A stretch of 64,000 nucleotides of DNA from Patescibacteria group bacterium (GTDB lineage: Bacteria; Patescibacteriota; Patescibacteriia; UBA10025; JBIOWE01): positions 78,558 through 142,557 of the forward strand of contig JBIOWE010000006.1 in assembly GCA_044868145.1 (NCBI GenBank), written 5' to 3'. Positions 4,749-59,911 of the stretch are shown piece by piece (position 1 is the stretch's first letter; every line of letters starts with the position of its first letter). Both the position numbers and the translations under genes were made by a program. The notes under the pieces were generated by a model. It was not told the origin of the DNA. It did not search any database and saw only the letters and a list, made by a program, of their open reading frames with translations.

Positions 4749-5189
4749 ATGGCAAAAACATTCCATTTCGAAATAACGACACCCGAGAAAACCGTTCTCA
4801 AAGATGAGATTGACGAACTCATTGTGCCAACGCCAAACGGCGAGATTGGCATTTTGCCCAATCATGTGCCGCTTGTCTCGCTCGTTTCGCCCGGTGAAAT
4901 TCGTATTAAAAAGGGAAGTGACGTGACCCATATGGCGACGTCCGGCGGTTTCGTGCAAGTGCAACGCGACAAAGTAATTCTCCTTGCGGACACCGCTGAA
5001 CACGCGGAAGAAATTGACGTGGCAGCCGCGGAAGAGGCGCATAAACGAGCTGAAGCGATGATGAAGGAGAAGAAGTTAGATGCGCGAGAATTCGCTGCAC
5101 TGTCTGCTCGAATCGAAAAAGAGTTGGCACGCCTCAAAGTGGCGCGCAGGCGCCGAGAGCCAAAAATAAGACCAGGATCGCTTAAATAA
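4749..5189 (+). CDS. atpC: F0F1 ATP synthase subunit epsilon
   Basis: 146 aa; N-terminal beta-sandwich sequence (F.ITTPEK...E.D.LIVPT..GEIGILPNH.PL) plus helical C-terminus. Confidence 0.9.
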   Translation: MAKTFHFEITTPEKTVLKDEIDELIVPTPNGEIGILPNHVPLVSLVSPGEIRIKKGSDVTHMATSGGFVQVQRDKVILLADTAEHAEEIDVAAAEEAHKRAEAMMKEKKLDAREFAALSARIEKELARLKVARRRREPKIRPGSLK

Positions 5190-7138: not shown

Positions 7139-10100
7139 ATGAATATTTCCGAGAACCTGAATGACGCGCAAAAAAAGGCGGTCACGTTTGGCGAAGGACC
7201 GCTTTTGATTGTGGCCGGCGCCGGAACTGGAAAAACGACCGTGATCACCCAGCGTATCGCATGGCTCATCCTCGAAAAAAAACTGAAAACAGATTCCATC
7301 CTCGCGTTGACGTTCACGGATAAAGCCGCGGGCGAGATGGAGGAGCGCATTGACGTCGCGTTGCCGTACGGCTACGTTGATCTTTGGGTGTCGACGTTTC
7401 ACGCGTTTTGCGAGCGTATCTTAAAAGACAATGCATTGGAGATTGGCTTGCCGCCGGATTTCAAGCTCTTGAATCAAGTTGACCAAGCGCTACTCGTTCG
7501 GGAACAGTTTGACCGGTTCAACCTTGATTATTATCGGCCGCTCGGGAATCCGACAAAATTTATTCAAGCGCTCGTTAAACATTTCTCACGCGCAAAAGAT
7601 GAAAATATTTTACCGCAAGATTACCTTGAGTATGCAAAGAACGTGAAACTCGATCGCGACCAAGCGGAGTTTTTGAAGAAGAAGGAGGGCGAGCGCATCT
7701 CTGAAAAAGAACGCATACAAGAGGTCGCGGACGCGTATCACGTCTATCAGCAGCTTTTGTTGGAAAAAAGCAGCCTCGATTTCGGCGACCTGATTCTGTA
7801 TGCGATTAAATTGCTGAAGGAACGGCCAAACGTGCTGAAGCGATACCAGGAGCAATTCGCGTATATTCTCGTGGACGAGTTTCAAGACACCAATCATGCG
7901 CAATACGAGCTCATCAAGCTCCTGGCCGCGCCGAAGAATAACGTAACTGTGGTCGGTGATGACGACCAGTCAATCTACAAATTCCGCGGAGCCGCCATAT
8001 CGAACATTTTGGAGTTTAAAAAGGACTTTCCGAATTCGCAGGAGATCGTACTCACAGAAAATTATCGTTCGAAACAAAACATCCTTGATTTGGCGTACAA
8101 GTTCATTCAACTGAATAACCCAAACCGCCTTGAGTATCAATTGTCGCACGGGCACATTGATCCGAAGGGCCGCCCGCTGCAAACAAAAATTTCCAAACAG
8201 CTCCATTCCACAACGGGCGATGCGGGGTTGATCGAGCATATGCATTTTCGAGGCCACACGGAAGAGGCGTCGGGCGTAGTGAAGAAAATTCTCGATTTGA
8301 AGCGCGACGACCCCAAGCTCACGTGGTCCGATTTTTCGATTCTTGTTCGTGCGAACAGCTACGCGAGCGACTTTCTGGCGGTCTTGCGACGATACGACGT
8401 GCCGTATCACTTTCTCGCATCCTCAGGGCTCTACAGCCAGCCTGAGGTTATGGACATTATCGCTTATTTGAAGATGCTTGATAATTATCACGAGAGCGCA
8501 AGCTTATGGCGCGTATTGAATTTTCCTCATTGGCAATTACCGCATAAAGATCTTATTGAGTTTTCCCGATATGCGTCAAGGCGAAATGTTTCGCTGTATG
8601 ACGCGATGAAGATTGGAAGATCGTTGCAATCGGTTTCGCAGGAGACCTTGAAAAAAATTGACGACGTGCTTGGCATGATTGAAAAACATACGGCGTTCGC
8701 GAAGCAGAAAACCGTGGGGCAAGTCGGTTTGCAGTTCATGCAGGATTCTGGATATCTCCAACATTTAACTGAAAATCAGAACCAAGAGAATCTTGACAAA
8801 ATCATGCACCTCAACCAATTTTTTCGAAAAATCGAGCAGTTCGAGTCGAACCATGACGATAAGTCGGTGCACTCGTTCTTGAAGGAGTTCGAGATGATGC
8901 AGGAAGCCGGTGAGGAGGGCGCTTTATTGCCACCGTTTGAAGAGGGCCCAGACGCGGTGAAACTGATGACGCTGCATAGCGCAAAGGGGCTCGAATTTTC
9001 CTACGTGTTCCTCGTCAACTTAGTTGATAAACGATTCCCATCCGTGGAGCGCAAAGAGCCGATTGAGCTTCCGGAAGCGCTGATTAAGGAGATTATCCCC
9101 GAAGGCGATGTGCACCTGCAGGAAGAGCGGCGGTTATTTTACGTCGGCATGACACGAGCAAAACAGGCGCTTTTCTTCACATCCGCTGATGATTACGGAG
9201 GAACGCGCAAGAAGCGGCCGTCGCGTTTTCTTGTTGAATTAGGATTCCAGCGCAAGGAGGGAACAGAAGAGGTTGACTTCAGCGAGCGACTAAGGCAGCC
9301 AGAACAAATGAGCCGTCAGGAAGTGAGCTATGTGGAATTTTTGCGAAAATCAATTCCGGAAAAAGCGAGCTTCACGCAAATACGCGCATTTGAAACGTGC
9401 CCGAAGCAATATAAGTATGCGCATATTTTTAAGATTCCTGTGGAAGGACGGTTCACCTTCAGTTTTGGAAAGTCCGTTCACAATACGTTATTTCGGTTTT
9501 TTAAGCTCGTGAAAGAACGGGCCACGAATAATCAAGCCAGCCTTTTTTCGACTTCCAAAGCGCCAAAATCAACGCAGCCGATTGTAACCCTCGAGGAGCT
9601 GCTCGTCATCTATGAGAATGCGTGGATTCCCGATTGGTACGAATCAAGCAAGCATCAGGAGGAATATCAGCGAAAAGGCAAACAGCAGTTGCAGCAGTGG
9701 TACCTTGCGATGCAAGGAAAGTTTCCGGTGCCTGTTCATCTTGAAAAATCGTTCAACGTGAAAATAGGCGAGCGTCTTTTGAAAGGGGTGATTGATCGTA
9801 TTGATCCAGTGGGGGAGAACGGGGAGGTCGAGATTATTGACTACAAAACGGGCGCGGTTCCAAAAGGAGGCAAGCTTGAAGAAGACGACAAGCGACAACT
9901 GTTCATCTATGACTTGGCCGTCCGCGACGTACTTGGCTTGAAGCCCAAGAACCTCACCTACCACTACCTTGAAGGCAACCAGCTCTTATCATTTGCAAGC
10001 GATCCTGCTACACTAGAGGAGACGCGAGAATACCTAACGCAGACCGTTGAAGCCATTCACGGGAGCACGTTCGCCGCTACTCCTGGGTATTGGTGCAAGA

Positions 10101-17011: not shown

Positions 17012-17557
17012 ATGCCAAAACAAACAGCACAACTTGGTCGCCGATGGTACGTTCTCCATACGTATTCAGGATACGAAGAAAACGTTGCGCAAAACTTGCG
17101 CCAGCGTATTGAATCAATGGGTATGGAGGACAAGATTTTCAATGTGTTAATCCCGACTGAGAATAAGATTAAGATAAAAAACGGTACAAGGAAGATCGTG
17201 ACCGAGAAGATTTTTCCCGGCTACGTGCTCGTCGAGATGATCGTGACCGATGATTCATGGTATGTCGTGCGTAACACCCCGAACGTCACCGGGTTCGTTG
17301 GCTCAGGCACGACGCCGACCCCGATTTCCGACACAGAGGTGAAAGAGATCCAACGGCGCATGGGGATTGCCGAGCCGAAGTACAAAATCGATGTTACCCC
17401 GGGCACACCTGTTCGCATCACGGATGGGCCATTCAAAGAATTTGAAGGGAAAGTTTCCGAAGTGGATGAGTCGCGTGGTAAAGTAAAAGTACTTGTTTCA
17501 TTATTCGGACGCGAAACACCCGTTGAGCTGGACTTCTTGCAAATTAAGAAACTTTAA
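17012..17557 (+). CDS. nusG: transcription termination/antitermination factor NusG
   Basis: 181 aa; [14 protein letters not shown] domain and C-terminal KOW ([30 protein letters not shown]). Confidence 0.95.
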
Positions 17558-17562
17558 AGAAT

Positions 17563-17991
17563 ATGGCGACAAAAAAAATAAAGACGATCGTGAAGCTCCA
17601 AATACCCGCAGCCAAAGCAACGCCGGCGCCACCGATAGGGCCAGCGCTCGGGCAACACGGCTTGAATATTCAGGAGTTTTGCAAACAATTTAACGACCGC
17701 ACAGAGGGAATGAGCGGTGATATTGTGCCGGCAGAAATAACTATTTTTGAAGATCGTACGTTTAAGTTCGTCTTAAAAACTCCTCCCGCCGCGGAGCTCT
17801 TGAAAAAAGCGGCGAAGATCGAGAAAGGATCCGGTAGCCCGTTGAGCCAAAAAGTCGGCAAAGTCACAAAGCAACAAATTCGAGAGATCGCCGAGAAGAA
17901 AATGCCTGATTTGAACGCGAAAGACATCGAAGGGGCGATGCGGATTGTTGAAGGCACCGCGCGCAACATGGGTCTGACCGTGGAAAAGTAA
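17563..17991 (+). CDS. rplK: 50S ribosomal protein L11
   Basis: 142 aa; [30 protein letters not shown]. Confidence 0.97.
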
Positions 17992-17998
17992 GAGGTCA

Positions 17999-18964
17999 AT
18001 GCTTAGTTTGCTTATCCCGTTTGGGATTCTCATTATTATTATCTTTGCCATCGTGGCAATGATAGAAGGTAAAACAACAATGAAAAAAGGACGGGTGATT
18101 CGCAGTCTGTATTTCTATTTGACGTCGCTCATTACGCTCGCTATCGTGGTGGGCTCGTTGATTTATCTTATTAACCTTGGCTTGAAGAGCTACGCGTTTA
18201 AGGATGCCGATGCGGGGCTTGATTATGCGGGCGCGCCGCCGACATTATTCTTGGACGCCACAACAACTCCGGAGGCAGCGAAGCCGGTTGGACCGATAGA
18301 TGCAAAACTTTCGTGCGAAAAGGATTGTACGCTTACGGAAACGCAAAAAACGGGTATCGAGAGTTGGAAAACTAACTATCAGCAATGGCAAAGGACCGCA
18401 GCCGATCCCAGCGCAAGGCGGACGCGAGATGCGGTTGCCGCGCTTTCGTTTTTTCTCGTGGCGCTTCCATTTTTCATTATTCATTTTCGCGTAGTGCAAA
18501 AGGATGCAAAACAGCAAGACGAGTCTGAACCAGGCGCGATGCGGCCAATGTATTTTTACTTCGTGGCGCTGGCATCGCTCGTGATGATCGTTGTCGCCGG
18601 CGGTTTTCTCATTAACGTCGGTTTGAAAACATGGGTGTTCCCGAAAGCCGGCCAAGTAGACCAACAGGTGGTACGGCCGTATATTGCTGAATCTGATGCG
18701 AATAAAACCGTTATGGCAAGCCTGGTTGATTGTGCGGATAAGTGCGGTATTGACGCCGAAACAAAAGCGCTCGCGCAGAAGTGGCAAACTGATTACGATT
18801 CGTGGCAGGCACGGGTTAATAAACCGACGAACACGAACCAGCGTCAGGCCGCGACCTCCATTCCGTATGTGTTCGTCGGCATACCGCTGTTTTGGTACCA
18901 CTGGACCGTAGCGCGTCGCGAATCAAAAGAACGCAAGCAATCTCCGCCGACGATGGCTACATAA
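17999..18964 (+). CDS. hypothetical membrane protein with internal tandem duplication (2 x [2 TM + Cys-pair + W..Q.W motif]) inserted between rplK and rplA
   Basis: Repeat 1 RSLYFYLTSLITLAIVVGSLIYLINLGLKSYAF...CEKDC...WKTNYQQWQ; repeat 2 RPMYFYFVALASLVMIVVAGGFLINVGLKTWVF...CADKCG...WQTDYDSWQ. Confidence 0.6.
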   Translation: MLSLLIPFGILIIIIFAIVAMIEGKTTMKKGRVIRSLYFYLTSLITLAIVVGSLIYLINLGLKSYAFKDADAGLDYAGAPPTLFLDATTTPEAAKPVGPIDAKLSCEKDCTLTETQKTGIESWKTNYQQWQRTAADPSARRTRDAVAALSFFLVALPFFIIHFRVVQKDAKQQDESEPGAMRPMYFYFVALASLVMIVVAGGFLINVGLKTWVFPKAGQVDQQVVRPYIAESDANKTVMASLVDCADKCGIDAETKALAQKWQTDYDSWQARVNKPTNTNQRQAATSIPYVFVGIPLFWYHWTVARRESKERKQSPPTMAT

Positions 18965-18969
18965 AGAAT

Positions 18970-19653
18970 ATGACCGATCGATCAAAACGATATTCACAGG
19001 CAAAAAAGCTTGTTGATAGTACGAAGACGTACGATATTGACGAAGCTTTACAATTGGTCAAGAAAATTTCGACGACCAAGTTTGACGGAAGCGTCGAGGT
19101 CCATATCAAACTGGGCATTGATCCAAAAAAAGGAGATCAGTCCGTGCGCGGTTCCGTCACGCTGCCCCACGGAACCGGCAAAAAGAAGATCATCGCCGTT
19201 TTTGCAGAAGGCAAGGCGGCTGATGACGCCCGCGCGGCAGGCGCCGACATCGTTGGCGGCGACGAGCTGATTCAAGAAATAAAAAAGACCGGTAAAGTTA
19301 ATTTCGAGATTGGTATGGCGACGCCTGCGATGATGAAAAAGCTCGGTCCCGTTGCCAAGATTCTTGGGCCGAAAGGACTGATGCCCAATCCAAAGAACGA
19401 GACAATCACCGATGACGTTGCGAAGACTGTGGCTGCGCTCTCGAGCGGAAAGATTACTTTTCGAAATGATGAGTCCGGCAATATTCATCAAGTTATCGGA
19501 AAGACGTCTTTTGAGACGAAGCAGCTTGGTGAGAACCTGTCAACATTTCTCGAAGCGGTAAAACGTACAAAGCCCCAAGCCCTCAAAGGCACCTTTCTGC
19601 TTGGCATGGCGGTCGCATCGACCATGAGTCCTGCAATCAAGATTAAAAGTTAA
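18970..19653 (+). CDS. rplA: 50S ribosomal protein L1
   Basis: 228 aa from ATG 18970 (MTDRSKRYSQAKKLVD...); conserved L1 sequence. Confidence 0.95.
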   Translation: MTDRSKRYSQAKKLVDSTKTYDIDEALQLVKKISTTKFDGSVEVHIKLGIDPKKGDQSVRGSVTLPHGTGKKKIIAVFAEGKAADDARAAGADIVGGDELIQEIKKTGKVNFEIGMATPAMMKKLGPVAKILGPKGLMPNPKNETITDDVAKTVAALSSGKITFRNDESGNIHQVIGKTSFETKQLGENLSTFLEAVKRTKPQALKGTFLLGMAVASTMSPAIKIKS

Positions 19654-20453: not shown

Positions 20454-22055
20454 ATGGCTGACGACAAACGAGACATCTTTGCAATCGTAGGATTACCACC
20501 CGAGGTACTCGCGGTCGCCATGGCGAAGTATTCCCGTTCTGCGAAATCCATCAAGGAAACGATTGATGAGTTGACCGAGGAAAAATCCGCAGAGTTTCAC
20601 GAAAAGTGGGTGTTGGGATACGGCGATGCGTCCGTCGCTGATATGGCAATTGTTGCGCTCGCGCTGGAGAATGTTTCCATTCTCGCGAGCAAAGTGATCG
20701 AAGACAACCGAATAGCCGCGTATCAAGAAAAATCCACGCGCTACCAGTCATTCGCGCTTGAAGATAAAGAATTATCAGCTCACTTGCTTGAGCGCAAAGA
20801 AACCGGAGAAGCATTCGCTCGAAAAAGGTACTTCAAGCCCCGGGCAATCATGGCGTCCGGCCAAGCGGCTTTGTTCACGCAAACGGCCGACTTTTTGTTT
20901 GAGCAATACACGGAGATAACAAAGAAGATGATGGAGTATTATTCGCGGAAGTACCCCAAGCCTGCGGACATGACGGATAAGGCCTACGCCGCAAAAGTGC
21001 GGGCACGCTCGCTCGACGTGGCCAGATATTTGTTGCCGGCGGCGACGTTGACGAATTTCGGCATGATCATCAATGCGCGCTCGCTCCGTCATGCGATTTC
21101 CAAAATGATGGGACATCAGCTGGAAGAATTACACGAGATCGGGGCGGAAATGCGGGAAGCCGCCATCAACCCGGCATACAATCCGCAGTCGAAAAAGATC
21201 GAGCAATTACTTGCCCAACTGCGTGCGCTCGGAGGAAAAACGCAGGAGTTAGCCGACCAAGTTCAACAATCCATTTCCCTCCAAGTGAAAGGAGCGCCGA
21301 CGCTTATCAAACATACGGACCCCAAAGAGTATTTAACAAAAACAAGCACGAAACTTGCGGCGATCGCCTCGGAATTACTGAAAGACGTGGTTCCGGAAGC
21401 GGGGGAGCGCGCGTCCTATCTGGGGGTGGATGAAACGTACGAAGACGAGCTGATCATCACCCTTCTTTACGGCGTATCTCATTGCGCGTATCGTCAGATT
21501 GCCGACGTCGTGAGGCGATTGCAAGAAGCGAAGAAAAAAGAAATTATTAAAATCGCAACAGCGCATCGCAGCCAGTGGGATTGGCCGACGCGCCACTTTG
21601 AAACCGGTCGTCAATTCACCTTTGACACGCTTATGGACTATGGCGCGTTTCGGGACCTCCAGCGCCATCGGCTCACGACGCAGATCAACCAAGAGCTGGG
21701 AGTTGAGCATGGCTATGAATTGCCGCTTGGCCTTGGCATTGACGAAGCGGGACTCACTGCACAAATGTCGCAAGCGCTTGAACGCGTGAAAGAAGTATAC
21801 CTCGAGCTGAAATACTCATTCCCGAACGAAGCGCAATACATTATCCCGCTCGGGTTTCGGAAGCGTACGCTTTTTAAAATGAATCTTCGCGAGCTCACGC
21901 ATATCGTGGAACTGCGGACAAAAGCGGGAGGTCACCTATCGTACCGCGACCTGTGCTATGAAATGTATGCAAAAGTATCCAAGCGGCACCCACTGCTCAC
22001 CATGCACATACGCGCCGTGAAGCCGGATTTCCCTAAGGAATTTTTTGAACGCTAG
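20454..22055 (+). CDS. thyX: FAD-dependent thymidylate synthase ThyX-like, fused two-domain (533 aa)
   Basis: Degenerate ThyX motifs in each half (YSRS...STRYQS in the N-half; QRHRLTTQ in the C-half); immediately followed by tmk. Confidence 0.6.
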   Translation: MADDKRDIFAIVGLPPEVLAVAMAKYSRSAKSIKETIDELTEEKSAEFHEKWVLGYGDASVADMAIVALALENVSILASKVIEDNRIAAYQEKSTRYQSFALEDKELSAHLLERKETGEAFARKRYFKPRAIMASGQAALFTQTADFLFEQYTEITKKMMEYYSRKYPKPADMTDKAYAAKVRARSLDVARYLLPAATLTNFGMIINARSLRHAISKMMGHQLEELHEIGAEMREAAINPAYNPQSKKIEQLLAQLRALGGKTQELADQVQQSISLQVKGAPTLIKHTDPKEYLTKTSTKLAAIASELLKDVVPEAGERASYLGVDETYEDELIITLLYGVSHCAYRQIADVVRRLQEAKKKEIIKIATAHRSQWDWPTRHFETGRQFTFDTLMDYGAFRDLQRHRLTTQINQELGVEHGYELPLGLGIDEAGLTAQMSQALERVKEVYLELKYSFPNEAQYIIPLGFRKRTLFKMNLRELTHIVELRTKAGGHLSYRDLCYEMYAKVSKRHPLLTMHIRAVKPDFPKEFFER

Positions 22056-52656: not shown

Positions 52657-52779
52657 CGCGCCGTTGTAGCTCCCCGTACAATCCTCATTTCACTCGGATT
52701 TACGGGGCAAGCAGTTGGCACCCCGCACAACGAATCGTTCCGCACGTCGTATGCAGGGCAAGGAGCAACTCCATTACAT

Positions 52780-52855
52780 GCCGAGATAGCTCAGTTGGTA
52801 GAGCATCCCCATGGTAAGGGGAAGGTCACGAGTTCGATTCTCGTTCTCGGCTCCA
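52780..52855 (+). tRNA. tRNA-Thr (anticodon GGT)
   Basis: Manual cloverleaf: acceptor GCCGAGA/TCTCGGC, anticodon stem TCCCC/GGGGA, loop aTGGTaa, T-loop TTCGATT, CCA encoded. Confidence 0.9.
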
Positions 52856-52999
52856 GTTTCAATCTACTAAAGCATGGCGACCTTGGAATGTCATATATAC
52901 TGAACGTTTTACAGCAAAAGCCGAAGCATATAAAAAAGAAAGACAGATAAAATCTTACAAGGGTGGCGAAGGGTTTAAAAAATTGTTGCGTTGAGGCTG

Positions 53000-53106: not shown

Positions 53107-53182
53107 GCCGAGGTAGCTCAGCCGGTAGAGCAACTGTTTTGTAAACAGTAGGTCGGAGGTTCGAATCCTCTCCTCGGCTCCA
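53107..53182 (+). tRNA. tRNA-Thr (anticodon TGT)
   Basis: Acceptor GCCGAGG/CCTCGGC, anticodon stem ACTGT/ACAGT, loop ttTGTaa, T-loop TTCGAAT, CCA encoded. Confidence 0.9.
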
Positions 53183-53198
53183 GGCGATCGGCAGGCGG

Positions 53199-53237
53199 GT
53201 AAACAGTAAGTCGTGGGTTCGAGTCCCACCTCCGGCT
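53199..53237 (+). pseudogene. tRNA-Thr(TGT)-derived 3' fragment (anticodon-loop remnant + variable + T-arm + 3' acceptor; no 5' half)
   Basis: GTAAACAGTAaGTCGtgGGTTCGAgTCCcaCCTCCGGCT parallels GTAAACAGTAgGTCGgaGGTTCGAaTCCtcTCCTCGGCT of the preceding tRNA; the complementary 5' acceptor strand is absent. Confidence 0.55.
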
Positions 53238-53335: not shown

Positions 53336-53491
53336 ATGTCACAAGATAATCTCATCAAATTAGAATGCACCGTGTGCCATCGGGTGAATTACTATAACTA
53401 TAGAAATAAGAAGACTGTTAAGGCACGGCTTGAGCTCAAGAAGTATTGCCAATGGGATAAGAAGCACACCCTCCATAAAGAAAGCAAGTAG
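53336..53491 (+). CDS. rpmG: 50S ribosomal protein L33
   Basis: 51 aa; LECTVCHRVNYYNYRNKK...RLELKKYCQWDKKHTLHKESK zinc-ribbon L33; the longer ORF from 53213 is an artefact. Confidence 0.9.
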   Translation: MSQDNLIKLECTVCHRVNYYNYRNKKTVKARLELKKYCQWDKKHTLHKESK

Positions 53492-53573
53492 CTTATGGCG
53501 TATGGCTTATAGTTAAGATGCGTCGCAATCAGTATTCCTATATGCGATAGGCTATAAGCCATAAGCTTTCTTT

Positions 53574-53607
53574 GGGGCTATCGTTCAATGGCAGGACACT
53601 GGTCTCC
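53574..53607 (+). pseudogene. 5' half of a second tRNA-Trp-like gene (acceptor + D-arm + anticodon stem up to CTCC of the CCA loop)
   Basis: GGGGCTATCGTTCAATGGCAGGACACTGGTCTCC parallels the 5' half of the intact tRNA-Trp; its partner lies at 53809-53845. Confidence 0.5.
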
Positions 53608-53684
53608 CCGCCCGCCTTCGAACGCCTTCACTGGGAGAGTAGTTTAGCGGCAGAACGCCGGTCTCCAACCCGCCCACCAACACT

Positions 53685-53755
53685 GGGGTCATCGTTCAAC
53701 GGCAGGACGTCGGTCTCCAAAACCGATAACCGAGGTTCGAATCCTCGTGACCCCG
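53685..53755 (+). tRNA. tRNA-Trp (anticodon CCA), intact
   Basis: Acceptor GGGGTCA/TGACCCC, anticodon stem TCGGT/ACCGA, loop CTCCAAA, T-arm CGAGG-TTCGAAT-CCTCG; CCA not encoded. Confidence 0.88.
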
Positions 53756-53808
53756 ATGTTGGTGGGCGGACGACTCCTTCCTCTCCCGCTGAAGGCGGTC
53801 GGGTGGGC

Positions 53809-53845
53809 AAAACCAGTAATCGGGGTTCGAATTCCTGTGGCCCCG
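53809..53845 (+). pseudogene. 3' half of the split tRNA-Trp-like gene (AAA of anticodon loop + ACCAG stem + T-arm + acceptor TGGCCCC)
   Basis: AAAACCAGTAATCGGGGTTCGAATTCCTGTGGCCCCG pairs with the 53574 half: acceptor GGGGCTA/TGGCCCC (one G-U), anticodon stem CTGGT/ACCAG. Confidence 0.5.
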
Positions 53846-53911
53846 TATCAATAAAACAATTGTTTATACGTATGAACTTAATTCGTCCTTAACATTAGCA
53901 ATGAACACAAT

Positions 53912-54337
53912 ATGAAAACAGCAATCGTCGTTATCGTCATCGTCGTGGTGGTCGGCCTCGGCGCATGGTATTTTTTAAGCCAGGACAAGGGTTTGTACTC
54001 AAACTCAAACACCACGACCAACACGGTATCGGGAAACACGAACGGAGTGCAAACCACGTTTGACAAACAAATGAGCATTAATGAGTATGCATTTTCGCCC
54101 AACACAGTGACGGTCGGCCTTGGGGAGACAGTTCGTCTTCTTGTGAAAAACAATGGATCGACTGACCACAACTTTATCGTTGACGAGCTGGGTGTGAGCT
54201 CCGGCTCGATCGCCCCGGGCAAGGAAAAAGTCGTGACAATCAACGGTTCAAAGGTGGGCACGTTTAAGTTCTATTGTGGTATTGATTCGCATCGAGGGCT
54301 GGGTCTCGAGGGTACCGTCACCGTTACGGCTCAATAG
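53912..54337 (+). CDS. membrane-anchored cupredoxin (plastocyanin/azurin-like blue-copper domain)
   Basis: N-terminal TM; Cu-ligand pattern H(NF)...C(GIDS)H(RG)...; TVTVTA beta-strands. Confidence 0.65.
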   Translation: MKTAIVVIVIVVVVGLGAWYFLSQDKGLYSNSNTTTNTVSGNTNGVQTTFDKQMSINEYAFSPNTVTVGLGETVRLLVKNNGSTDHNFIVDELGVSSGSIAPGKEKVVTINGSKVGTFKFYCGIDSHRGLGLEGTVTVTAQ

Positions 54338-59416: not shown

Positions 59417-59432
59417 TTGGAGCGGGATACCC
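59417..59432. repeat. 16-nt direct repeat TTTGGAGCGGGATACC, copy 1, embedded in a near-palindrome
   Basis: Identical 16-mer recurs at 59726-59741; the two copies bracket the GIY-YIG gene. Confidence 0.7.
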
Positions 59433-59446
59433 GCCCAAATTTTCTC

Positions 59447-59710
59447 CTACTGCCTTACTAATGCTAAACTATTTCTTATATGTTTCTTTACGAAATTGCG
59501 ACCCCATCCTGTTTTAAAATATTTTTCTCGTTCGCGCGCATCGGATTCTGCTAGGAACGCTTCATAATAGAGAAGTTTGAACGGAGTCCGCAGTTTTGTC
59601 GAAAATACTTTACCCGCGCGGTGTTTGTTAAGACGCTTCTTCAAATCATTCGTAAATCCGGTGTATAATTTATTATCTCTGGTACTGTACAGAATGTAAA
59701 CATAGTACAT
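59447..59710 (-). CDS. GIY-YIG nuclease superfamily protein (87 aa)
   Basis: MYYVYILYSTRDNKLYTGFTNDLKKRLNKHRAG...KLLYYEAF...REKYFK..GRNFV matches the GIY-YIG core; the longer 248-aa ORF extension is antisense to neighbouring features. Confidence 0.8.
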   Translation of the reverse strand: MYYVYILYSTRDNKLYTGFTNDLKKRLNKHRAGKVFSTKLRTPFKLLYYEAFLAESDAREREKYFKTGWGRNFVKKHIRNSLALVRQ

Positions 59711-59725
59711 AAAGGAGTCCGAAAA

Positions 59726-59741
59726 TTTGGAGCGGGATACC
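59726..59741. repeat. 16-nt direct repeat TTTGGAGCGGGATACC, copy 2
   Basis: See copy 1. Confidence 0.7.
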
Positions 59742-59766
59742 GGAATCCCTGCCCGCCCTCGCCTTT

Positions 59767-59837
59767 GCGGGTGTAGTATAGCGGCAGTACGCTTGCTTCC
59801 CAAGCAAGAAGAGGCGGTTCGACTCCGCTCATCCGCT
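59767..59837 (+). tRNA. tRNA-Gly (anticodon CCC)
   Basis: Acceptor GCGGGTG/CATCCGC (one G-U), anticodon stem CTTGC/GCAAG, loop ttCCCaa, T-arm GGCGG-TTCGACT-CCGCT, discriminator U. Confidence 0.8.
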
Positions 59838-59862
59838 CGGGCGAAGGCAGGCGGGGAACCGG

Positions 59863-59911
59863 CGCAACAACCTTGGGAAGGTTGTGTACTACCACTATAC
59901 GAATCCCGCAA
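59863..59911 (-). pseudogene. inverted partial tRNA-Gly(CCC)-like copy (5' half intact, 3' half degenerate)
   Basis: Reverse complement GCGGGATTCGTATAGTGGTAGTACACAACCTTCCCAAGGTTG has acceptor, D-arm and CCC anticodon arm but no valid T-arm/acceptor 3' strand. Confidence 0.4.

Follow-up and report, generated by a model that had tools for sequence, protein, structure and literature searches.

A three-layer nested tRNA-Trp locus in Patescibacteria points to a putative inverted-repeat cassette carrying replacement tRNA genes

In Archaea, disrupted tRNA genes contain bulge-helix-bulge introns at several positions, the introns of tRNA-Trp carry a C/D-box RNA and the split tRNAs of Nanoarchaeum have a complementary G+C-rich leader and trailer. 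Neither Rickettsia palindromic elements, which are inserted in functional genes, nor the hairpin intervening sequences of rRNA bring any cargo, and both are found as many dispersed copies. As reportedly described by Williams in 2002, islands and prophages bring a replacement segment of the gene when they integrate in tRNA genes, at anticodon-loop and T-loop sublocations.

Group I introns have been found in Patescibacteria tRNA genes at positions 35/36, 33/34 and 36/37 (Nakagawa et al. 2026, PMC13011429), those at 35/36 interrupting tRNA-Asn, tRNA-Asp and tRNA-Tyr (PMC13011429). Among 95 complete Patescibacteria genomes, only tRNA-Asn and tRNA-Asp were missed by standard tools, so that intact tRNA-Trp genes are the rule (PMC13011429). 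In the tRNA clusters of T4-like phages, the free-standing GIY-YIG homing endonuclease SegB has its cleavage site within tRNA genes, at a motif (RAWTSGAAC) that corresponds to the DNA of the T loop, and is responsible for a segmental amplification of these genes (PMC13096335). The literature on nested, split or interrupted bacterial tRNA genes, on CPR tRNA introns and on GIY-YIG enzymes with Patescibacteria tRNAs was searched, and the arrangement presented here was not found described in it.

This arrangement is a tRNA-Trp(CCA) locus made of three layers, an outer copy A, a middle copy B and an intact innermost copy C, which are kept apart by two nested inverted-repeat pairs, IR1 and IR2. It is located in a 64-kb stretch of Patescibacteria DNA, analysed as a whole and hereafter called the window. 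The initial annotation had listed an intact tRNA-Trp lying between the two halves of another one, a third partial 5' half-copy and both inverted-repeat pairs; all these elements were recovered in place. Copy C (53685..53755, + strand) is the only tRNA called at the locus by ARAGORN and Rfam (53684/5-53755/6; RF00005, 63.3 bits, E = 2e-11) and the only tRNA-Trp of the window called by standard tools. Its 3' CCA is not encoded and is therefore presumably added post-transcriptionally. A repeat finder detected three copies of the 5' half (53570-53609, 53629-53668 and 53681-53720) and two of the 3' half (53718-53755 and 53808-53845), as well as both inverted-repeat pairs.

Copy A is split in its anticodon loop. 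Its 5' exon (53574..53607, + strand) corresponds to tRNA positions 1-34/35, i.e., the acceptor strand GGGGCTA, the D arm, the stem strand CTGGT and CTC(C) of the loop. Its 3' exon (53808..53845, + strand) includes (C)AAA of the loop, ACCAG, the variable region, a T arm CGGGG/TCCTG, the acceptor strand TGGCCCC and the discriminator G; it is 86% identical to the 3' half of layer 2 of L130 (L-numbers denote loci in Patescibacteria relatives). Both exons were delimited by the repeat finder and by ARAGORN on the joined copy, 53574-53607 plus 53809-53845 giving a tRNA-Trp(CCA) with the acceptor stem GGGGCTA/TGGCCCC, the anticodon stem CTGGT/ACCAG and the loop CTCCAAA. Shuffling both halves never led to any tRNA call (0/2000), nor did shuffling the 3' half alone (0/2000), which supports the valid cloverleaf proposed for the outer halves. 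The split had been placed at 35/36; this position is possible, yet a single C leaves a choice between 34/35 and 35/36, and the other comparable nests are split unambiguously at 34/35. The T stem of A, already noticed as weak, contains two G.U pairs, one of them at the normally invariant pair 53:61.

The IR1 left arm (CCCGCCCGCCTTCGAACGCCTTC), followed by a 3-nt linker ACT (53607..53632, + strand), pairs with the IR1 right arm (GAAGGCGGTCGGGTGGG; 53791..53807, + strand) and, in the same way, the IR2 left arm (CCGCCCACCAACA; 53670..53682, + strand) is the perfect complement of the IR2 right arm (TGTTGGTGGGCGG; 53757..53769, + strand), both right arms being recovered in the fold and by the repeat finder. 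The flank TTGGTGGGCGGAC at the IR2 right arm resembles the flank that follows layer 2 of the L130 Trp nest. Between IR1 and IR2, the third half-copy is indeed present as the 5' part of copy B (53633..53668, + strand; repeat finder), with the acceptor strand GGGAGAG, the D arm, the stem strand CCGGT and the loop CTCCAA. Its 3' remnant (53772..53788, + strand), which comprises GACT of the T loop, the T-stem strand CCTTC, the acceptor strand CTCTCCC and the discriminator G, had been overlooked. With this remnant, the locus counts three layers, C being enclosed in B and B in A. The acceptor strand CTCTCCC pairs with GGGAGAG (53633-53639) both in the fold and in the repeat-finder output, whereas positions about 38-56 of B are missing. 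Compared with the intact inner tRNA-Trp carried as cargo by L124, B shows 89-94% identity (89% for the 5' part, 94% for the 3' end).

Folded as a whole, the region (53574-53846) adopts a fully nested minimum free energy structure of -133.8 kcal/mol (z = -5.9), and 0/200 shuffles fold as well. The two junctions are juxtaposed where a continuous helix begins, in a 3 x 4 internal loop for the Trp nest and in a fully paired helix for a Gly nest described below. No bulge-helix-bulge is present in these folds, which rules out an intron or a split tRNA of this type. The locus nevertheless resembles the archaeal disrupted tRNA genes by the complementary G+C-rich sequences at its halves, by the use of several sites including the T loop and, as in the archaeal tRNA-Trp intron, by a second functional RNA inside the interruption. 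It also differs from them by its bacterial host, by a passenger that is a tRNA with the same anticodon and by many defective outer copies.

With the group I introns of Patescibacteria, the locus shares the phylum, nearly the same insertion position, a precise interruption of the anticodon loop that hides a tRNA from standard tools and the lack of target duplication, most of the intron copies being also devoid of an endonuclease gene (PMC13011429). A self-splicing intron of this group is however hardly conceivable here. A cmscan of 53450-53950 with E up to 10 retrieved only tRNA and chance matches, without RF00028 or any ribozyme, and an Rfam scan of the whole window at the gathering threshold retrieved tRNAs only. 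The 5' exon of A ends in ...CTC or ...CTCC, so that the base at -1 is C and not U; a split after U33 would require CCAAAA at the 3' junction, where the actual sequence is GGGCAAAA. While a ribozyme would need about 200 nt or more of intron-specific sequence, the insert of L131 is about 115 nt long, including 74 nt of bona fide tRNA, and the content of the insert is wholly explained by tRNA copies and paired arms. Furthermore, unlike group I introns, the nests also use sites in the T loop and the D region, and an intact second copy is present in the loci seen. The suggestion of the initial annotation that a tRNA-encoding intron interrupts the gene is less likely, its group I and bulge-helix-bulge forms being rejected; other forms are considered below.

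The Trp nest recurs in relatives. Trp nests were retrieved with the right-arm motif alone, and the same precise insertion, with near-identical arms, was found in at least four other Patescibacteria metagenome loci. Different outer tRNA-Trp genes are split in L124/L125, L130 and L131, and a remnant is present in L132/L133. These nests share the junctions GGT(C)TC|CCCGCCCGCC... and ...GGTCGGGYGGG|CAAAACC, in genomes with 42-52% protein identity to the window; the closest relatives available show only about 50% identity in the TPR protein. Uninterrupted versions of the same site, which the initial annotation had suggested looking for, exist: a tRNA-Trp lies directly after rpmG in L128, L143 and L144. 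The plain gene of L128 is 89% identical to the outer gene of L124 with both inserts removed, and the latter, joined without its inserts, is called as a tRNA-Trp. All nests found are at orthologous tRNA clusters of one clade, which is also compatible with vertical inheritance of an old structure.

This recurrence makes it very improbable that the nest is an assembly artefact or a read chimera of several tRNA-Trp genes. The assembly is of metagenome type, repeats and palindromes can mislead assemblers and the contig of L163 ends inside a nest-type region. However, nests with the same junctions come from independent assemblies of different projects, L124 and L125 being identical nests in two independent assemblies; L132 and L133 are also identical to each other. 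Moreover, as the layers differ in sequence, no repeat is long enough to collapse.

The window contains a second nest (59728-59909), in which an intact tRNA-Gly(CCC) is located in antisense inside the T loop of another tRNA-Gly(CCC). On the - strand, exon 1 of the outer gene (59856..59909) ends in the T loop after TTC (position 56) and gives a sub-threshold Rfam tRNA match (59850-59909, 24 bits). It is separated from exon 2 (GATT-CCGGT-ATCCCGC-T-CCA; 59728..59747, - strand) by a 108-nt insert (59748..59855, - strand), whose arms CCCGCCTGCCTTCGCCC and GGCGAGGGCGGGCAGG belong to the IR1 family and enclose the intact cargo in antisense (59767..59838, + strand; ARAGORN, Rfam 60.8 bits). Joined, the two exons give a canonical tRNA-Gly(CCC) according to ARAGORN, which also miscalls half of the outer gene as a second tRNA. 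In the orthologous Gly nest of L130, which has the same arms, the cargo is in sense orientation; the occurrence of cargo in either orientation argues against a co-transcribed, intron-encoded tRNA.

Similar traces are found at tRNA-Thr genes. An arm-like motif, GGCGATCGGCAGGCGGG (53183-53199, + strand), lies directly 3' of the intact tRNA-Thr(TGT) (53107-53182) and precedes the displaced 3' half, from the anticodon loop, of a different tRNA-Thr(TGT) (53200-53237, + strand), a half very similar to the 3' half in layer 2 of the Thr(TGT) nest of L048. The window contains the arm-like motif at two places only, both immediately downstream of an intact tRNA. Upstream of the intact tRNA-Thr(GGT) (52780-52855), the probable 5' pieces of an outer tRNA-Thr(GGT), as read from the sequence (GCGCCGTTGTAGCTC / AGCAGTTGG / GAGCAACTCCAT; 52658..52779, + strand), are split by two hairpin plugs, an architecture common to L163, L124 and L143. 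Nests or fragments of Thr(TGT), Thr(GGT) and Tyr genes are present in L048, L124, L128, L131, L143 and L163. Both the three layers of the Trp locus and the nesting of other tRNA genes of the window by the same element family had escaped the initial annotation.

The arms are of the type CCCGCCYGCC...CGCCTT / AAGGCG...GGCGGG. In the 64-kb window, CCCGCCYGCCTTCG occurs only at the Trp nest and the Gly nest; arm motifs of 14-17 nt are shared by cargo of four tRNA specificities, which they flank, and the window contains none of them elsewhere. The IR1 left arm is near-identical in L124, L130 and L131, and AAGGCGGTCGGGCGGGC of the right arm is identical in L124, L130, L131 and L132. Furthermore, a change in one arm is matched by a change in the other, CGCCTTC/GAAGGCG of the window and L130 corresponding to CGCCTTT/AAAGGCG in L124. 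Across distant genomes, the arms are more conserved than the tRNAs that they flank, and arms that are otherwise identical enclose different cargo (of the B type in the window and L124, of other types in L130 and L131). This arm conservation with a change of cargo is explained by a sequence-specific role of the arms no less well than by a recent spread. No free cassette copy was seen outside tRNA genes. Three arm-motif scans of viral contigs gave nothing, or chance matches in G+C-rich phage coding regions, and the matches listed (at least 120) in a scan of genome contigs with GGCAGRACNNNGGTCTCC are mostly chance matches in coding DNA and ordinary tRNA-Trp genes.

The insertion points are between the third and the fourth position of the 7-nt anticodon loop (34/35) or of the T loop (56/57). 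There is no target duplication, the joined flanks being exactly CTCCAAA or TTCGATT. The base triplets that precede the insertions and end at the third loop base are CTC, TTC, CTG, ATG and TTT; the common feature of the sites is structural, and not a fixed tetranucleotide. 

The nests were also compared with known mobile elements. As in MITEs and other transposons with terminal inverted repeats, the inserts are bounded by such repeats (IR1, IR2), but target-site duplications and dispersed copies are lacking, the arm motifs being found only at the tRNA genes of the window. The ends pair with each other and do not form the separate subterminal hairpins of IS200/IS605-type single-strand elements or of their miniature derivatives. 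A general dispersed REP-like repeat was also rejected, arm motifs and CCGCC...GGCGG hairpins being essentially limited to the tRNA loci of the window. Like Rickettsia palindromic elements and rRNA intervening sequences, the inserts include short hairpins in loops of structured RNAs and encode no enzyme; unlike Rickettsia palindromic elements, their motif is limited to tRNA genes and they carry a replacement gene. With the islands and prophages of tRNA genes, they share the same loop targets, the provision of a working tRNA and the displaced tRNA fragments that remain. However, the nests have neither an integrase nor a duplicated crossover segment, measure 100-200 nt, carry a whole tRNA rather than its 3' part and are nested instead of tandem. 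An integrase att structure was rejected for lack of a duplicated core at GGTCTC|CCCGCC... / ...GGGTGGG|CAAAACC and of an integrase in the window.

Serial duplication and decay had been another explanation offered for the locus. Copies A and C differ by compensatory changes at the pairs 5:68, 27:43, 28:42 and 51:63 and, since such changes affect three stems, they are marked as xenologues. Together with the nucleotide-exact junctions in independent genomes, these changes contradict a simple serial duplication in situ. A foreign origin is also suggested for B by its match to the L124 cargo.

No recombinase, transposase, integrase, TnpA or full-length homing endonuclease was found in the 64-kb window, and the neighbour ORFs of the Trp nest encode no nuclease or recombinase (cupredoxin, OmdA-like, MsrA, MsrB, DivIC and unknowns). 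The window does contain an 87-aa GIY-YIG nuclease ORF (59447..59710, - strand; Pfam PF01541, E = 2.6e-17), lying between direct repeats of the outer tRNA-Gly 3' end (about 59726-59741 and 59418-59433), whose product may be a trans-acting nuclease. A 5'-truncated GIY-YIG pseudogene (…RPWNVIYTERFTAKAEAYKKERQIKSYKGGEGFKKLLR*; 52857..52994, + strand), recognized by comparing its translation with a GIY-YIG alignment, directly follows tRNA-Thr(GGT). Homologues are present in the tRNA clusters of L128 (PF01541) and L131 (alignment only). As in GIY-YIG homing cassettes, a gene for the catalytic domain is thus found next to target genes in the window (59447-59710) and in L128; such genes often adjoin nests or fragments in relatives, and none is inside or directly beside the Trp nest. 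The situation is comparable to that of SegB, also a GIY-YIG enzyme encoded among tRNA genes, which promotes the duplication or preferential inheritance of tRNA segments (PMC13096335). It differs in that the ORFs of the window type, predicted only, are 79-87 aa long and have the catalytic domain without the DNA-binding domain, and in that the nests are bounded by inverted repeats whereas the products of SegB are tandem repeats.

The nests could also be no discrete mobile element but the debris of repeated double-strand-break repair and foreign-DNA uptake at tRNA clusters. The local GIY-YIG nucleases would perhaps introduce the breaks, recombination facilitated by homology would be anchored in the conserved loops and stems of the tRNAs, and the G+C-rich palindromes would either be local repeats or have been left by repair. 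The clusters are littered with tRNA 5' pieces, 3' halves and tandem partial copies, the GIY-YIG ORFs or remnants lie among these fragments and are flanked by duplicated tRNA segments, and SegB provides a precedent by cutting tRNA genes and driving their amplification (PMC13096335). The variable cargo between otherwise identical arms points in the same direction. This explanation is nonetheless rather unlikely, as the nucleotide-identical junctions of independent genomes restore the outer gene, which illegitimate joining would not do. Arm motifs of 14-17 nt that are common to four cargo specificities, and their co-variation between the window or L130 and L124, are not expected from it either.

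A new bacterial tRNA intron has also to be considered. In this case, a pathway involving neither a ribozyme nor a bulge-helix-bulge, probably a protein-dependent, Patescibacteria-specific endonuclease-plus-ligase, would excise the plugs at 34/35 and 56/57; the outer genes would be functional and the inner tRNA would be a passenger released from the same precursor. Several observations agree with it. Canonical tRNAs are restored exactly upon removal of the inserts, and the insertion sites correspond structurally, each following the third base of a loop of 7 nt. Hairpins preserve their stems despite divergent sequences, as in the double hairpin at Tyr 34/35 of L124 and L131, and arms and small exon pieces are kept across genomes with the low protein identities given above. 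Every stem is still paired in the outer Gly gene and in the outermost copy A, which is nearly intact though it would be expected to have been dead the longest. The transition-type imperfections noted in the arms read as G.U wobble pairs on the sense strand of the outer gene, on which the stems of arms and hairpins also tend to have the higher stability (7 vs 2 cases with a gap of more than 2 kcal/mol among 19 plugs and arms, which is not significant). In addition, unusual tRNA and rRNA introns are already known in Patescibacteria (PMC13011429).

However, such an intron is quite unlikely. A spliced intron does not predict that an intact partner with the same anticodon is present beside or inside every interrupted copy seen with its locus intact. 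Several outer copies are visibly decayed or truncated and would not be functional even if spliced: besides B, the outer gene of L131 is not recognizable as a tRNA even with its inserts removed, the outer Thr gene of L143 lacks 4 nt of the D arm, the outer Thr gene of L124 is also defective and the outer Thr(GGT) gene of the window has lost its 3' half. The outer gene of L124 contains a C.A mismatch, and its T loop is interrupted by a second plug. Furthermore, the Gly cargo of the window is antisense to its outer gene, the putative splice sites are juxtaposed at the foot of an uninterrupted helix, the last base of the 5' exon is C, no ribozyme core was detected and neither a splicing endonuclease nor an RNA ligase is encoded among the roughly 55 ORFs of the 64-kb window. 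Lastly, tRNA-Trp was found by standard tools in all the complete Patescibacteria genomes surveyed (PMC13011429).

The explanation that seems probable, with a modest degree of confidence, is a DNA-level cassette that inserts precisely into a loop of a tRNA gene and carries a replacement tRNA. The first of the proposals made in the initial annotation, and the one favoured there, an inverted-repeat element bringing its own tRNA-Trp, is indeed the one that best fits the recurrence, the empty sites, the decay of the outer copies and their intact partners. Several observations speak against this explanation: neither a mobility enzyme in the 64-kb window nor a free cassette copy was found, the arms are more conserved than the tRNAs, the outermost copy A is nearly intact, short exon pieces that should be dead are kept between distant genomes, the arm imperfections read as G.U on the sense strand and the nests come from a single clade. 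The three-layer nest would result from two successive, nucleotide-precise insertions. The resident tRNA-Trp A would have been split after the third base of its anticodon loop (34/35) by a first short cassette with G+C-rich inverted-repeat ends and a complete foreign tRNA-Trp B inside. A related cassette carrying tRNA-Trp C would later have struck B, removing its positions about 38-56. Only C would be a working gene, the outer copies being presumably dead pseudogenes. The region is probably transcribed as one precursor, in which arms and outer halves would pair into a long rod with C at its tip, and C would be released by the normal tRNA end-processing enzymes.

Since this cassette would destroy a tRNA gene and supply a substitute, the host would depend on the cargo, and imprecise loss of the cassette would be lethal. 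The same cassette family would also nest the Gly(CCC) and Thr genes in this Patescibacteria clade. How it moves can only be speculated upon: the flanking tRNA halves may mediate recombination or a repair of the homing type, with the small GIY-YIG nucleases of these clusters as possible triggers. Insertions that are exact, duplication-free and set at a fixed place in 7-nt hairpin loops imply an enzyme specific for site or structure, which could have practical interest.

If the cassette is confirmed, it would represent an undescribed strategy of selfish elements, in which a precise hit kills a tRNA gene, a substitute with the same anticodon is supplied and successive invasions pile up as nested genes. 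This would explain the repeated foreign replacement of tRNA genes in the ultra-small, streamlined genomes of Patescibacteria, and also why their tRNA clusters are strewn with tRNA fragments. Should the plugs be introns instead, they would reveal a new type of bacterial RNA splicing, with one precursor giving two or more mature tRNAs, and nesting would be a functional architecture and not wreckage.

It should be emphasized that tRNA annotation in Patescibacteria misses or miscalls the nested loci. Another observation concerns the evolution of their parts: the short, apparently dead exon pieces are kept between distant genomes, and the plugged hairpins diverge.

The locus at 53574-53845, described in the initial annotation as an intact tRNA-Trp lying inside a split copy of the same gene, is a real nest according to tRNA calling on the joined halves, shuffling, a repeat finder and folding. 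Once 53574-53607 and 53809-53845 are joined, ARAGORN calls a tRNA-Trp(CCA), so that the outer halves (copy A) do form a valid tRNA; shuffling both halves or the 3' half alone never gives a tRNA call (0/2000 in each case). The intact inner tRNA-Trp(CCA) (copy C, 53685-53755) is the sole call made by standard tools (63.3 bits). The repeat finder recovers three copies of the 5' half, two copies of the 3' half and both inverted-repeat pairs, the outer one being IR1 (53607-53632 region and 53791-53807) and the inner one IR2 (53670-53682 and 53757-53769). The minimum-free-energy structure of the locus is fully nested (-133.8 kcal/mol, z = -5.9) and leads inwards from the outer acceptor, D and anticodon stems through the IR1 helix, a GGGAGAG/CTCTCCC helix and the IR2 helix to the inner cloverleaf. 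The third partial 5' half-copy proposed initially is present (copy B, 53633-53668), but it is not a 5' part alone: 53772-53788, made up of the T-loop GACT, a T-stem strand, an acceptor strand and the discriminator, is what remains of its 3' part, and positions ~38-56 are missing from B. Thus, the locus is three genes deep, A containing B and B containing C. The split of A, first placed at 35/36, is ambiguous by one C and can be read as 34/35 or 35/36.

The nest follows the gene series rpsB-tsf-TPR protein-tRNA-Thr(GGT)-tRNA-Tyr-tRNA-Thr(TGT)-rpmG, and related nests are found in relatives and metagenomes. For example, the contig L124, whose TPR protein is 52% identical to that of the window, carries a split outer tRNA-Trp directly after rpmG, with the junctions ...GGTCTC|CCCGCCCGCC... 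and ...AAGGCGGTCGGGCGGG|CAAAACCAG, arms nearly identical to IR1 and an intact tRNA-Trp between them. This inner gene is an undamaged version of B (89% identity for the 5' part and 94% for the 3' remnant). The outer gene holds an additional 67-nt hairpin in its T loop and is called as a tRNA-Trp when both inserts are removed. An identical nest is present in L125, an independent assembly from another run. Furthermore, a metagenome scan using the right-arm motif as sole query returned four contigs, every one with this kind of nest: L130, with at least three layers; L131, where the outer gene is decayed, the arms are the same and the inner gene is intact; and L132 and L133, with identical nest remnants. 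The nests of L124, L130 and L131 adopt the same nested fold. An uninterrupted tRNA-Trp at the same site, the comparison suggested in the initial annotation, exists in L128, L143 and L144 as a plain gene immediately after rpmG. Since the L128 gene is 89% identical to the outer gene of L124, L128 represents an empty site.

The remnant in L132 (7400-9588, minus strand) and L133 consists of the right arm and the outer 3' half only, the latter with a T-loop plug, i.e., a hairpin insert. The inner tRNA is cut down to its last 11 nt, which abut a putative type I restriction R-subunit gene (hsdR-like from reading of the translated sequence), and no tRNA-Trp is called in the 9.6 kb of these contigs. 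We read this as a probable island integrated into the 3' end of the inner tRNA-Trp. A hairpin, CCTGCCTGCCGSCAGGCAGG, lies beside the Trp nests of two unrelated contigs (L131, ~8900-9000, minus strand; L132, ~7350, minus strand) and may be another small palindromic repeat family. In another comparison locus (L002, 1000-1140), an intact tRNA-Trp is preceded by three direct repeats of ~60 nt that include a G+C hairpin. Each repeat opens with the 12 nt found at the start of this tRNA-Trp (ACGGGCGTAGTT), and they appear to be 5'-end fragments in tandem.

The tRNA-Trp copies of the nest are xenologues. A and C are 83% identical, with compensatory changes at 5:68, 27:43, 28:42 and 51:63; the nearest match of C is a tRNA-Trp from Paceibacterota (L022, 87%), and that of B is the inner gene of L124. 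Layer 2 of L130 resembles A (86%, 3' half), has a right flank (TTGGTGCGGGAC) resembling the IR2 arm, and is enclosed by a layer-3 gene that has the same 3' end as the L124 outer gene. The same few tRNA-Trp types and two arm types are thus found in a nesting order that differs by genome, and layers also recombine across genomes.

Nesting is not restricted to tRNA-Trp. A tRNA-Thr(CGT) and a tRNA-Gly(CCC) are located ~5.5 kb downstream, and the back-to-back tRNA-Gly(CCC) pair called by ARAGORN at 59767-59910 is actually a second nest (59728-59909, both strands), exon 1 of the outer gene and part of an arm having been taken for a second tRNA-Gly (59839-59910). Exon 1 (59909-59856) and exon 2 (59747-59728), both on the minus strand, join into a canonical tRNA-Gly(CCC) split after the TTC of the T loop (56/57). 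The 108-nt insert has arms of the same family as IR1 (CCCGCCTGCCTTCGCCC and GGCGAGGGCGGGCAGG); its cargo is an intact tRNA-Gly(CCC) that lies on the plus strand, antisense to the outer copy. Across the 64 kb, CCCGCCYGCCTTCG has exactly two matches, one at the left junction of each nest (Trp and Gly), and 0/100 shuffles reach two. Synteny with L130 extends over Trp nest-DivIC-PpiC-Thr(CGT)-Gly nest at 42-44% protein identity; the L130 Gly nest has the same arms, a cargo in sense orientation and an extra outer layer split at 34/35.

Nesting of tRNA genes in tRNA genes is general: further nests were found by matching each tRNA to its own locus and then reading the matches. Two intact tRNA genes of the window, tRNA-Thr(TGT) and the Gly cargo, are directly followed by a related motif, GGCG-N2-3-GGCAGGCGGG (at 53183 and 59840, respectively), which in L124-L126 is located 3' of tRNA-Thr(GGT). 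Directly after the intact tRNA-Thr(TGT), 53183-53237 consists of GGCGATCGGCAGGCGGG followed by the displaced 3' half (anticodon loop to discriminator) of a different tRNA-Thr(TGT). Its acceptor strand CTCCGGC matches layer 2 of the L048 nest described below, and CAAATTTTGC...GCAAAATTTG borders the whole unit. L048 (2080-2400, minus strand) carries a three-layer Thr(TGT) nest split at 34/35, with A+T-rich leader/trailer inverted repeats (TTTAGGTTTTGC/GCAAAACCTAAA) and no G+C-rich arms; nest architecture is therefore independent of the G+C-rich motif. The outer tRNA-Thr(GGT) genes of L143, L124, L163 and the window are in 3-4 pieces, cut by hairpins and by an arm-flanked intact copy. In L143 (4410-4660) and L124 (4130-4400), the cuts are at 10/11, in the D loop and at 34/35; the L143 exon pieces are 100% identical to the intact copy in the D-loop insert, but the D arm lacks 4 nt. 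In the window, the stretch that leads up to the intact tRNA-Thr(GGT) (52658-52779) comprises three short pieces like the 5' part of such a tRNA, with two C-run...G-run hairpins between them and no matching 3' half following; L163 (3270-3436, after the TPR gene) has the same layout. Tyr copies carry a homologous double G+C hairpin at 34/35 (L124 and L131) or a plug at 56/57 (L128). Both recurrent sites lie in 7-nt loops on 5-bp stems, just after the third loop base, and the insertions there are exact, without duplication.

Each named family of inserts fails on at least one defining feature. Group I introns at 35/36 were recently shown in tRNA-Asn, tRNA-Asp and tRNA-Tyr of Patescibacteria (PMC13011429). 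Such an intron is excluded here: the catalytic core is absent, the last base of the 5' exon is C and not U, the homologous L131 insert is just ~115 nt, 74 of which are a tRNA, and tRNA copies and paired arms account for the whole insert. Rfam families other than tRNA have no match in the 500 nt around the Trp locus (E up to 10). A bulge-helix-bulge intron is excluded because the two junctions lie opposite one another at the base of a single helix, so that the motif cannot be drawn, and integrase insertion because the junctions lack a duplicated crossover core.

The best-supported reading is a DNA-level insertion of cassettes made of inverted-repeat arms and a complete tRNA. A cassette would enter exactly into the loop of a tRNA gene with the same anticodon, killing this gene and providing its replacement, and successive invasions would generate nests. 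In the window, ordinary end processing would free C from a precursor that is long and structured, with CCA added afterwards since C ends in ...CCCCG followed by ATG and does not encode it. Several observations argue that the outer copies are dead: an intact partner with the same anticodon accompanies each interrupted copy seen, cargo occurs in either orientation, and many outer copies would be nonfunctional even if spliced (B, the L131 outer gene, the outer Thr of L143 and L124, and the outer Thr(GGT) of the window). Moreover, standard tools missed only tRNA-Asn and tRNA-Asp in 95 complete Patescibacteria genomes (PMC13011429).

However, other observations fit cassette insertion poorly. Across genomes at 42-52% protein identity, the arms are more conserved than the tRNAs that they flank. 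Cargo differs between arms that are identical, and hairpins have diverged whereas small pieces of outer exons are conserved. The middle copy is gutted but the outermost one, A, is nearly intact; the pattern of the middle copy (5' part to the anticodon loop, 3' part from the T loop) is also seen in layer 3 of both L130 nests. Stem imperfections lean to G.U on the sense strand of the outer gene (7 versus 2 cases, not significant). These misfits keep alive two other readings: that the inserts are true introns, which seems quite improbable, and that they are repair debris with no discrete element, which we regard as unlikely. Cassette insertion could possibly be reconciled with them if outer halves and arms were kept as leader and trailer of the cargo precursor and as homology arms for recombinational spread.

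Small GIY-YIG ORFs, limited to the catalytic domain, are present in nest-bearing tRNA clusters and could be linked to the nests. Phage provide a precedent: SegB, also a GIY-YIG enzyme, shows a statistical association with tRNA genes, within which it cleaves at RAWTSGAAC (the opposite-strand form of the T-loop DNA motif), and it drives tRNA-segment duplication (PMC13096335). In the window, an 87-aa ORF (59447-59710, minus strand; PF01541, E = 2.6e-17) is flanked on both sides by a 16-nt direct repeat of the 3' end of the outer tRNA-Gly (GGTATCCCGCTCCAAA, span 59418-59741), a layout that looks like a cassette integrated at this end; GGGCGG directly precedes the second repeat. Other ORFs are located between partial and intact Tyr copies in L128 (5332-5580) and L131 (9952-10191). 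A 5'-truncated GIY-YIG pseudogene (52857-52994), readable over its C-terminal 45 residues, begins one base after tRNA-Thr(GGT); the equivalent position in L128 is occupied by an intact GIY-YIG gene.

In function, the Trp nest is nearest to homing-type insertions and to elements whose integration into a tRNA gene also restores it. This likeness, joined to the failure of every named family on at least one test, suggests a known kind of insertion, though the mechanism behind it may well be new. Full-text literature searches recovered group I tRNA introns as already known in the phylum, and no account of a tRNA gene lying inside another with the same anticodon, of bacterial tRNA genes with hairpin plugs at 34/35 and 56/57, or of GIY-YIG with tRNA in Patescibacteria.

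The window represents ordinary chromosomal DNA from a member of the Patescibacteria (CPR). Its ~55 ORFs are housekeeping genes (ATP synthase, PheRS, gyrase B, NusG, L11, L1, DnaE, ThrRS, RF1, S2, EF-Ts and others), with no integrase, transposase, reverse transcriptase, RNA ligase or splicing endonuclease among them. The L33 protein encoded just upstream of the Trp nest has its best matches (57-80% identity) almost all in Patescibacteria, and for the nearest relatives on record, identity in the TPR protein is just ~50%. In the same tRNA cluster of L144, an ORF for a 23S rRNA intervening-sequence protein (bAvd-like, 4813-5187) lies between tRNA-Thr(TGT) and rpmG. A long A+T-rich imperfect hairpin (53477-53573; 36-nt arms, 78% complementary) covers the rpmG stop codon and ends exactly where A starts; the scan found no terminator-like T run there. 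The nusG-rplK-rplA genes (17012-19650) are 34 kb from rpmG-tRNA-Trp (53339-53845) and no secE-nusG follows the tRNA-Trp, a layout unlike the arrangement common in bacteria. Finally, a ThyX-like ORF (20454-22052) matches the Thy1 domain twice and, with 533 aa, is about double the normal length, which suggests a duplication or fusion.
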